In this document: positions 12,001 to 15,000 of the stretch, piece after piece
Numbering within the stretch: position 1 is the stretch's first letter
How the letters are laid out: each line of letters begins with the position of its first letter
Made by a program: the position numbers
Assembly: GCF_001677475.2 (NCBI RefSeq)
Contig: NZ_CP015229.1
Source: Escherichia coli
GTDB taxonomy: Bacteria > Pseudomonadota > Gammaproteobacteria > Enterobacterales > Enterobacteriaceae
Direction: 5' to 3' (one strand)
DNA length: 64,000 nucleotides

Positions 12001-15000
12001 ACTGGATCGCTACCGGGTGATAGTGGTGGATGATCTTGGCTATGTCAAACGCGATAGTGCCGAAACGGGTGTGCTGTTCGAGTTAATAGCGCATCGCTAT
12101 GAACGTGGGAGCCTGGTGATAACCAGTAACCATCCGTTCAGCATGTGGGGCAGCATCTTCGTGGATGAGACTATGGCGGTGGCTGCGGCAGACAGGCTGA
12201 TCCATCACGGATATATGTTCGAACTGAAAGGGGAAAGCTACAGGAAAAAGACAGCGAAGGCAGTAACAAGCGCGACTTGATGTCGCCCTGAAGGGTGCGG
12301 CCAGTATAGTTGGCGCGAGTCGGCAAAACTAGTTGACGTCTAATACGCTCAACGCTGTTACTCCCCGTACACACGCCCAGCAACACCAGAACATAAGGGA
12401 TACCATCAGCACTGAGCACAGAACGCAGCACCAGAAAGCCATCAGGTGCCTCAAAACAAAACGCCTGCTTTTTAAGGCAGGCGTCTTTAACTTCATTCAT
12501 AAATTCAGGGTTGCGGGAATTTCTCACAACACGCTGCATATACCGGAGAATTTTATCGTTCATTCTCTCACCTGAAACGGGTGCCATATCGGCTGAACCT
12601 CAGCAACCAGTTGACGGGGACTTTCGTCCCCGCCGCGGTTTTCCTACTGCTTACACTGTAAGAACGCCGCAAACTCCGCTCCCCACAAATTCAGCCGGAA
12701 CTCACACAACGAGCCGTGTAACATCCAGATGGTGAAGATAACCGTCATACAAATTGTGACGGTGATAAGCGATTTTTGCGACATAGCGCTTGACTCCTTT
12801 TACAGAGAGGCGCTAACCTTCTACTTGCTTAAGGTACGAAGTGTTAGGGCCTCGGGTTAACGTTAAGTTGACTCGGGGCCTTTCCACATCAGGCCTTCAG
12901 GTTCACCCTCCAGCCATCAGCCGAAAGGCACCCACGCATAATTTACGATTTTTGCCCTGTACGGGCAATAAAAAACCCGCCATCACAGCGGGTAGTAAAT
13001 GGTTACCGGATACAGGTCAGAATTTCAGGCCAATGCCAGCAGTAACGCCACTCGTGCGCCAGTCGCCAGATCCGGAACCTTCGTAAGCCACATCCAGTGT
13101 AACACTCTCATTCAGGTTAAACTGTGCACCTGCAGCCCACGCAAGGGAGGTTTTTTTCGTGCTGTTGCTTTCAGAAAATCCGCCACTACTGTTAATATTG
13201 TCCTTAATTTTCAGGTCAGCGGTAACTTTAGCCACGCCTATCCCTGCCATCGCATATAAACTCATGTACTGATTAACCCGCCATGAAGGCCCCGCTAACA
13301 GACTCCAGTAATTCGCCCTGATATCCGTTCTGGCAGAAGCTGCCGGATTCTTAATCTTCCTGGTATGATCGGCTGACTGCACATCAATAAATGTCTGTGA
13401 GTTAGTGAGAGAACGCGTCCATGTAAAAGAGGTGATAACGCCAAAATCATCCGTTATCTCGTAGCGATACCTGATATTAATGCCCTGTGGATTTTTATCC
13501 TTGCCTTCATATCCACTGACCCGACCATCTGTATATTCGCCCAATGAAGAAAAGTAGTTTCTGTTGATGAAATGACTGAAAGTCTCCCTGTTATGAGCAG
13601 TCGCATCCTTTACAAAATCCTTCAGTCCCGGAAACTGAAAGTGCGCATACCCCAGAGAAATTGTATGGTCTCCTTCTGCTGCATGTGCTGGCATGGCTAC
13701 CATGCTCGTCCCAATAACCACACACGAAATAATATTATAAATATGCTTCATTTTTAGATTATTCCTGTTATAAAAAGGTACGGTAATTTGCAATCTTTTT
13801 TACTTAACACAAATATAAAGCAAATATATTGTATTGATATGATAAAAAGTTTTTATTGATGTAGATTTTCTTATTAATCATATATTGATGTATTAATAAC
13901 CAAGACCTTATCTATATACGGCTTTCGAATATCCCATGTTGCACCACCGGAATAATGCTCACAGGAATATATTTTATTTCCTGTAGCACCAGTGGATGTG
14001 GTATAAATCGGTCGATCATAAGGAGTTCTTTTCCAGTTATAATACCCGACCAGTGCAGGCATGATTGCGCATGGATATCCAAGGTCCTTTTCAAATTTGA
14101 TATCAACAGGTATTAACTTCGCGTCAAGCAGCATCATTTCGCCATGATAAATCATCTCACCGTCCGGGTTATACATGGCGATACCATACTCAGAAGGTGG
14201 AGTAACCATATTCGCGAAAGCATAAACCGTCGTAACACCAGGGTTCATTCCCCTGACAATTACATGAAGCCTTAGTGCATGATATCCATCAATCTGTTCA
14301 TGCGTGTACATGACATCGGCCTTCTTCTCTGTTCTGATAAAGAAAAAACAACTTTTGCCTGACGGGATTGATGTTTTAAAAAAAGCCTTTTCCGTCGCCG
14401 GTATGGTGCCTTTGTTGATCAGACACTGCGGTGTAAAACCAGGACTTATCCATACGCTGCCATCCGGCTTCATAATGCTCAAACCATACATGACACTTAT
14501 CCCCAGAATGTATAAATATAAGATCCCATACCCTGCTCAAGATTCGACCACGTCACCGTATTGCCATTAATGGTTATCTTCGGTACTTTCCGATCCGCAA
14601 ATACATTATTCCAGGGAAATAAACAACATACAGCCTGCAATGATTTCCCGTCGGGTTTATTCGTGTACGTCTTTGAGCCAGACTCCGCTGTAAATCTGTC
14701 CAGGAAAAATACCGGAGTCAGCACGCCCGTAACATTAACGTTATTTCTGTTATAAATGGCAAAACCGTATTCCAATACTCACCTCCTGATCAGCGTAATC
14801 TGCCTATGCGAACAGCCAGTCGTCCATTCTGGTCATAAACCTCAATTTTATCATTGCGGATCACCAGTCCTACATTCTGATTAGAGTAACGAATTGTCAG
14901 TTGCCCTTGTGACGTAACACTGAAAAGGCCTCCAATATTCAGGTTACCCTGAGAATCAACCTGAAAGTTTCCGTTCTGAATAACGGCGCTCCGGATAACT

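Follow-up and report, generated by a model that had tools for sequence, protein, structure and literature searches.

A probable hok/sok-type toxin–antitoxin cassette beside lom in a 933W-like prophage of Escherichia coli, and its missing mok frame

A small gene beside lom in Escherichia coli contig NZ_CP015229.1 (assembly GCF_001677475.2) encodes what is, by sequence comparison, a genuine Hok-family membrane toxin, with a match far beyond chance. We examined it within a stretch of 64,000 nucleotides (nt) of that contig, referred to here as the window, to which all coordinates apply unless another record is named. The gene very probably belongs to a complete hok/sok-type type I toxin–antitoxin (TA) cassette (toxin 72_1589) carried as an accessory insert between lom and an L0129-like gene of a 933W-like (Sepvirinae) prophage. 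The cassette occupies ~390 bp on the minus strand, from 12968 to 12579, and its neighbors are the terminator of the Ail/Lom-family gene (12993-12975) and an open reading frame (ORF) of the L0129-like type. Peptide homology, conservation, purifying selection, and predicted RNA structures and promoters with phylogenetic support carry this reading.

The minus-strand frame from 12784 to 12644 specifies a peptide of 46 amino acids (aa), MSQKSLITVTICMTVIFTIWMLHGSLCEFRLNLWGAEFAAFLQCKQ, and is preceded by the ribosome-binding site AAAGGAG, whose GGAG (12797-12794) lies 9 nt 5′ of the AUG. A preliminary description of this DNA, made from the sequence alone, had placed a 46-codon ORF with a ribosome-binding site next to lom and had assigned it to the Hok/Gef family. 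The ORF lies where it was claimed, and the assignment is upheld by profile as well as pairwise comparison: Pfam HOK_GEF (PF01848) matches residues 8-44 (E = 4.7e-8, 33 bits), the PHROG 251 “MokW-like host killing” profile matches with E = 2.8e-24, and BLASTP aligns the peptide with Hok of plasmid R1 (E = 9e-7, 30% identity) and with a HokA-type peptide (E = 1e-11, 45% identity), the S-L-C-E and E-x-A-A-F blocks falling at equal spacing in these alignments. The set of conserved Hok residues, which follows an N-terminal hydrophobic helix, is complete. Residues M1, C12, T14, L26-C27-E28, and E37 are all present and correspond, with identical spacing, to M1, C16, T18, L30-C31-E32, and E41 of a published Hok logo, residues that are >80% conserved among 1264 Hok peptides. 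The chromosomal HokA of E. coli K-12 provides the best NCBIfam match (NF007290, E = 9e-10, 38.4 bits) and shares the ...ELAAFL.C motif, but the score is far under the equivalog cutoff of 89 bits, and we rejected assignment of the gene as a HokA equivalog.

The gene is already annotated and catalogued, and recognizing it is a correct but ordinary observation. RefSeq/PGAP lists it as “Hok/Gef family protein” (WP_000078907.1), and both the peptide and, over 141/141 nt, its coding sequence (CDS) are the same as those of Hok 72_1589 in a 2025–26 preprint (Escalera-Maurer et al., bioRxiv 10.1101/2025.08.07.668861). In that study Hok 1589 falls in 60%-identity cluster 72, a “high-abundance cluster,” and was cloned as pAZ3::72_1589 (LRP157) for toxicity assays. 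The preprint text reports 42 of 45 clones as toxic and names three non-toxic ones, among which 72_1589 does not appear, implying that this exact peptide is toxic on over-expression (10.1101/2025.08.07.668861). The same study considered the coding sequence only and deliberately set aside Mok, Sok, and the mRNA fold (10.1101/2025.08.07.668861); our additions are the account of the RNA elements given below and the finding that the mok frame is missing. The preliminary description had called the gene unlisted, which is accurate for the original phage records, since the 933W record AF125520 has nothing annotated between L0129 and lom, but not for RefSeq, nor for a sequence that has been catalogued and cloned in identical form. 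Original GenBank records of Stx phages (933W, VT2-Sakai, and others) omit the gene, and their users miss a second Hok locus; beyond such annotation hygiene the importance is small. For strain Sakai, Fozo et al. 2010 counted 14 Hok genes.

The better-known Hok locus of these phages is hokW-mokW-sokW (933W/Sakai prophage 5), which is likewise a Hok-family type I TA system of the same phage family and whose peptide is grouped with the present one in PHROG 251. Takada et al. 2021 characterized this locus of Sp5/933W, with primers and a description that specify a 51-aa peptide. It is nevertheless a different gene: HokW (MKQQKAM...DYESEK) has an annotated mokW, and the 3′ part of its coding sequence lies at 58.46 kb of 933W (AF125520.1 58463-58512), under the mokW/hokW features and ~13 kb from the lom-adjacent cassette. 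We therefore rejected identity with hokW-sokW on the grounds of the different peptide, the 13-kb separation in 933W, and the absence of the hokW start sequence from the window, where no Rfam sok hit attains the gathering score either. Judged from sequence, 933W-type phages carry two Hok loci, of which only hokW-sokW has been studied so far, and studies of hokW-sokW deletions may have been buffered by the lom-adjacent cassette. The latter occurs in 198 phage records, versus 46 for hokW.

Searched with blastn, the module is present in 1749 of 5426 complete E. coli genomes, at no more than nine copies per genome. The region around the locus shares ~98% identity with short-tailed Stx phages, 933W and VT2-Sakai among them. 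Copies of 78-82% identity lie in unrelated contexts: behind ogr where P2-like prophages end, on a P2-like element carried by a plasmid, in an O157 genomic island (with urease-gene flanks in locus L004), and beside a yafO toxin gene. Homology to copies in other contexts spans 12953-12579, exactly from promoter to fbi, and the unit is therefore a discrete module of ~375-390 bp. Of 19 copies, 18 retain the full 46-codon frame and one encodes a 45-aa variant. Between clades, dN/dS of the hok CDS is 0.11-0.46, and the Stx-clade alleles of the window, L001, and L012 differ by seven synonymous and no non-synonymous changes, a pattern with a probability of ~2e-5 under neutrality by our own calculation (~29 synonymous and 109 non-synonymous sites). 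These comparisons indicate purifying selection on the coding frame. Conservation is higher in the untranslated regions (UTRs) than in the coding sequence.

Two individual copies deserve mention. The genome of strain JNEC-KY171 (NZ_AP045167.1) matches the cassette at nine places, and its lom-adjacent copy (L014 1386-1523) encodes a 45-aa variant without the last Gln. In L006 (NZ_CP074936.1), positions 2501-2906 correspond to 12565-12970 of the window in the same lom context and represent a mosaic allele: identity to the window is 98% in the 5′ UTR and 95% in the 3′ UTR but only 72% in the hok CDS, and the peptide resembles the genomic-island (L004) type. This pattern suggests recombination that swapped the toxin CDS inside a conserved regulatory frame.

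The gene is surrounded by the elements of a hok-type RNA, whose coordinates are collected in Table 1. The interval initially proposed for the locus, 12644-12960, contains the hok CDS but leaves out the 3′ UTR with its fbi element, down to 12579, and the −35 box at 12968-12963, the region at which homology to diverged copies begins. The predicted −10 box sits 6 nt before a predicted start G at 12933 (GGGUGCC), the nucleotide at which the match to the Rfam sok model begins (model position 1), and the predicted 3′ end at 12579 is where homology to copies in other contexts stops. A generic promoter scan of 12400-13100 with a threshold of 9/12 consensus positions called neither the hok nor the sok promoter; the hok promoter was missed because its −35 and −10 boxes together score 8/12, and of the two predicted promoters each has either this 8/12 score or an 18-nt spacer with a weak −10 box. 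Both are therefore argued from conservation and from position relative to R1.

Folding of the 364-nt stretch from 12933 to 12570 gives a minimum free energy (MFE) of −153 kcal/mol (z = −5.7) with both ends paired. In an RNAalifold consensus of 12 copies that are 78-99% identical, 97.8% of cells are paired, against 37-42% with slid partners, and 11 pairs show compensatory changes, a count matched by 0 of 500 shuffles, these statistics being biased upward by the prediction of the structure from the same alignment. The tac/fbi end-pairing comprises 13 pairs that are 99-100% paired across the 12 relatives; six of the pairs vary, all by one-sided wobble-type changes (G-C/G-U or U-A/U-G), so the support comes from conservation of pairing and not from double substitutions. 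The hok-type fold with fbi, tac, and ucb elements, which the preliminary description had proposed as a check, is thus predicted to be stable, with end-pairing that is kept across relatives. Near the start codon, a local hairpin locks the GGAG of the Shine-Dalgarno (SD) sequence together with the “UA” directly before the AUG, and every full-length model leaves the SD almost entirely paired (unpaired probability 0.00-0.02; 0.01 for the window RNA).

Removal of the last 33 nt in silico changes this picture. Nucleotides 1-11 of the mRNA then pair with the ucb-like box at nt 48-58, and a hairpin with the loop CCUUAAGCA forms at nt 81-127; the unpaired probability of the hok SD becomes 0.31 in the window RNA and 0.00-0.21 in other clades, and partition-function models also show gains in accessibility for the leader start and the target loop. 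All 12 relatives are predicted to form the target hairpin; its GAGGC/GCCUC base never varies, its apical stems have different sequences, and its counterpart in the Rfam sok model is the third hairpin. Over 12933-12771 the hok leader matches that model (RF01794) along its full length (1-157) with 35.6 bits and E = 9.2e-6; the leader is related to the model but divergent. The predicted switch between full-length and truncated RNA follows the logic described for R1 hok/sok.

On the opposite strand, the TTGACT hexamer that had been noted at the hok start does overlap the hok ribosome-binding site, and we predict that it is the −35 box of a conserved antisense promoter placed as is the R1 sok promoter. 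The layout derived from the quoted R1 sequence, TTGCGC-17-TATCCT, matches that of the window; P2-type copies have TTGCTC as the −35 box with a 17-nt spacer, and the −10 box (complement AGGTTA) is unchanged in every relative. The 60-nt stretch 12827-12886, in which the putative Sok-like RNA lies, folds at −27.7 kcal/mol (z = −4.7). Its 5′ end, GCUUAAGG, is complementary to the target loop CCUUAAGC, and the complement of the Sok-terminator hairpin is mRNA nt 54-88. In the alignment of relatives, no part of the 5′ UTR varies more than the segment facing the Sok 5′ tail, and such a variable target would limit cross-talk among paralogous copies.

One expected element is missing. The preliminary description had anticipated a mok frame overlapping hok, as is normal for loci of this type, but in the window copy the leader ORFs stop 31 and 81 nt before the hok AUG and do not reach the hok SD. 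The longer of them starts at GUG47, and an alternative start at AUG45 (12889), two bases upstream of GUG47, opens only eight codons. Relative to hok, the GUG47 frame has the same offset as those ORFs of P2-type copies that continue past the hok start. In a survey of 19 copies (10 of the P2-type clade, 7 from Stx phages, and 2 from islands), an ORF from AUG45/GUG47 reads through the hok start in 8/10 P2-type copies, 0/7 Stx-phage copies, and 0/2 island copies. A mok start placed opposite the Sok 5′ tail, the R1 arrangement, was also sought and rejected, as the window has no ATG, GTG, or TTG there; some P2-type copies carry TTG101 at this place, without a Shine-Dalgarno sequence. In plasmid R1, mok must be translated as far as the hok SD, and premature mok stops upstream of hok abolish toxicity. 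Native translation of Hok could therefore be weak or absent in the window phage.

Several observations weigh against a complete and working cassette. One is the lack of any leader ORF that reaches the hok SD in the window, the seven Stx-phage copies, or the two island copies. To this can be added the upward bias of the structure statistics, the NCBIfam Hok models, all of which score far under their cutoffs, and the Rfam sok score, which at 35.6 bits falls short of the 59-bit gathering threshold. No intrinsic terminator directly follows fbi, and the nearest on the same strand (12479-12462) is inside the next ORF. Finally, no transcript, RNA end, or Sok RNA was found for the locus in the Sakai RIBOseq and EDL933 sources: neither the peptide nor the term “Hok” occurs in the small-gene supplements of the Sakai RIBOseq work, and the EDL933 RNA-seq/RIBOseq paper lists only “sok” hits at the Rfam threshold, which this locus would miss.

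These points do not return the gene to the status of a short intergenic frame that merely resembles Hok. Frames of 46 codons are common by chance and the phage GenBank records leave this one unannotated, but profile E-values of 4.7e-8 to 2.8e-24, conservation with purifying selection across 1749 genomes, and the hok-type RNA architecture around the ORF refute coincidence, to which we assign practically no probability. A more serious challenge is that the cassette descends from a functional hok/sok ancestor and that the Stx-phage lineage no longer translates Hok, retaining the locus because it is harmless. On this view the mok frame was broken, as it is in a number of chromosomal hok loci of E. 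coli K-12 that have been inactivated, and the introduction of Fozo et al. 2010 refers to degenerate hok loci; the contrast in leader ORFs between Stx-phage and island copies on the one hand and P2-type copies on the other, the effect of premature mok stops in R1, and leader ORF lengths that vary from 8 to 25 codons among Stx copies all fit it. However, the 46-codon frame is intact almost everywhere, and the 7:0 ratio of synonymous to non-synonymous changes in the Stx clade, with dN/dS <0.5 throughout, requires selection on the protein. Conservation also extends to both promoters, the tac/fbi pairing, and the SD and Sok hairpins, and the preprint text implies that the peptide is toxic. On balance we regard a silent relic as improbable.

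In favor of a functional cassette, then, the 7:0 pattern together with the dN/dS values leads us to think that the Hok protein is under selection and hence is translated despite the missing mok. How this might happen is a matter for more speculative proposals. We consider it possible, although doubtful, that the Stx-phage lineage represents a natural mok-less hok, in which Hok is translated without a leader frame that runs into the hok start. It is conceivable that the refolded, truncated mRNA exposes the hok SD directly, as the folding models would allow; it is also conceivable that the SD hairpin, which has an invariant UAG at its base, is melted by a ribosome that terminates there, and in the window and in L006 a leader ORF ends exactly at this UAG. 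If either route were true, mok coupling would be dispensable in part of the Hok family, and the missing overlap in the Stx-phage lineage offers a cheap natural test of whether the coupling is obligatory.

By analogy with R1 hok/sok and with hokW-sokW, from which we infer the RNA ends, the 3′ processing, the action of Sok, and the trigger, the cassette would work as follows. A sigma-70-type promoter would produce an hok mRNA of ~355 nt that is translationally inert at full length, closed by tac/fbi pairing and with the hok ribosome-binding site held in a local hairpin. Slow trimming of the 3′ end would remove fbi, and the freed 5′ end would refold onto GGAAAGGCCCC as the new hairpin forms at nt 81-127. 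Sok, ~60 nt long and made from the convergent TTGACT/TAACCT promoter, would meet the loop of this target hairpin through its 5′ tail, and the Sok/hok duplex would lead to a translation block and RNase III decay. Were Sok not renewed, Hok would be made, insert in the inner membrane, and kill or lyse the cell. Loss of the prophage, or induced late transcription running head-on into the sok promoter, could be the event that depletes Sok.

Candidate roles for such a device are stabilization of the prophage by post-segregational killing, help with lysis and release, and exclusion of other phages, an effect that has been reported for R1 hok/sok. A general addiction-type role is favored because the cassette also occurs in non-inducible contexts. 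That the same device serves instead as an aid to lysis and phage release at induction is a realistic but lesser possibility, suggested by what is known of hokW-sokW. Under this proposal, Q-antiterminated late transcription would continue from lom through hok and meet the sok promoter head-on; Sok would be lost, and Hok would weaken the membrane before holin and endolysin act. In Sp5, sokW RNA vanishes after mitomycin C, HokW appears RecA-dependently before endolysin, and deletion of hokW-sokW halves phage release; in the window phage a lysis-helper role is made plausible by the late-operon orientation of hok, directly after lom, and the convergent sok promoter. Yet the same cassette is found where P2-like prophages end, in an island, and next to chromosomal genes, all places that a late transcript would not be expected to cross, and these contexts fit general addiction or stabilization better.

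Compared with the R1 hok/sok (parB) system, the locus shares the toxin family and, by prediction, tac/fbi end-pairing, a sequestered hok SD, a stem-loop directly behind the stop codon, and a 3′ UTR of ~65 nt ending in fbi. Also predicted for the window as in R1 are a sok −35 box on the hok SD, a sok −10 box of the form TAnCCT, an antisense RNA of ~60 nt with a 5′ tail and a hairpin, and tac/ucb refolding after 3′ truncation. The differences are a peptide of 46 aa rather than 52 aa, with 30% identity; a predicted 5′ UTR of 149 nt rather than 173 nt; carriage on a prophage rather than a plasmid; and the lack of a mok frame overlapping hok. The candidate leader start of the window copy (AUG/GUG at nt 45/47) precedes the Sok hairpin region, whereas the mok start of R1 is opposite the Sok 5′ tail.

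Table 1. Features of the lom-adjacent cassette (window coordinates; RNA features and promoters are predictions)
Feature	Coordinates	Strand	Basis and remarks
lom intrinsic terminator, upstream cassette boundary	12975..12993	-	Terminator scan
Predicted hok promoter, −35 TTGCCC	12963..12968	-	Read from sequence; ATTGCC invariant in 12 aligned relatives
Predicted hok promoter, −10 TAAATT	12940..12945	-	17 nt after −35; TA[AGC]ATT kept in all copies
Predicted full-length hok mRNA, 355 nt	12579..12933	-	149-nt 5′ UTR, CDS, 65-nt 3′ UTR; putative ends
tac-like 5′ element GGGUGCCUUUCGGCUGA	12917..12933	-	Nearly invariant in 12 relatives, two single-base variants
Leader ORF in mok frame from GUG47, 24 codons	12813..12887	-	Ends at UAG 12815-12813 (nt 119-121), 31 nt before hok AUG
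ucb-like box GGAAAGGCCCC, mRNA nt 48-58	12876..12886	-	MFE fold of 3′-truncated RNA; invariant in all relatives
Predicted Sok-target hairpin, mRNA nt 81-127, loop CCUUAAGCA	12807..12853	-	Truncated-RNA fold
SD-sequestering hairpin, mRNA nt 119-150	12784..12815	-	RNAalifold helices 6+7, 96-100% paired, 12 sequences
hok CDS, 46 codons + stop	12644..12784 (ATG 12784, stop 12644)	-	Peptide homology, identity to 72_1589, dN/dS
G+C-rich stem-loop just past stop codon	12613..12634	-	Helix 15, 100% paired; 4 pairs with compensatory changes
fbi-like 3′ element AGCCGAUAUGGCACCC, complementary to 5′ end	12579..12594	-	End-pairing in 12 relatives
Predicted sok promoter: −35 TTGACT 12790-12795, 18-nt spacer, −10 TAACCT 12814-12819	12790..12819	+	Sequence reading
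Predicted Sok-like RNA, ~59 nt	12827..12885	+	Fold; largely unstructured 5′ tail, 16-bp hairpin, UUUCC; putative ends

Downstream of the cassette, a strong terminator-like bidirectional hairpin, ACGCCTGC-TTTTTAAG-GCAGGCGT, with T-runs on both strands, occupies 12461-12484 inside the L0129-like ORF, ~100 nt past fbi. Primary hok transcripts could in truth end here in lysogens, or the hairpin may have nothing to do with them; weak Rfam hits to BSnc120 and GlmZ are due to this hairpin. The annotated start of the downstream gene, ATG 12587, falls inside the hok fbi element. The real start is probably ATG 12563 (MNDKIL...), and the RefSeq start looks over-extended, because the PHROG 610 profile begins at residue 9 of the ORF that opens with ATG 12587 and because homology of the hok module ends at 12579.

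The L0129-like gene (PHROG 610) is itself split, 234 bp downstream of the hok cassette, by an insertion sequence (IS) element of the IS21 family at 9936-12344, and the hok module is intact despite this insertion. The element carries istA (10029-11528) and istB (11525-12280), with NCBIfam equivalog scores of 226 and 267 bits, and is flanked by a 9-bp direct duplication, ACGCTCAAC, at 9927-9935 and 12345-12353; a naive comparison found no inverted repeats at the exact insertion ends. As a result of the insertion, the 138-aa ORF at 12171-12587 is a fusion with IS sequence. Elsewhere in the window, matches at Rfam gathering level at 35475-35687, 36518-36764, 42028-42117, and 42959-43141 comprise STnc100 (182 bits), three consecutive tRNAs, sRNA-Xcc1, C4 antisense RNA, and isrK, which would fit the regulatory and late region of a lambdoid, Stx-type prophage.

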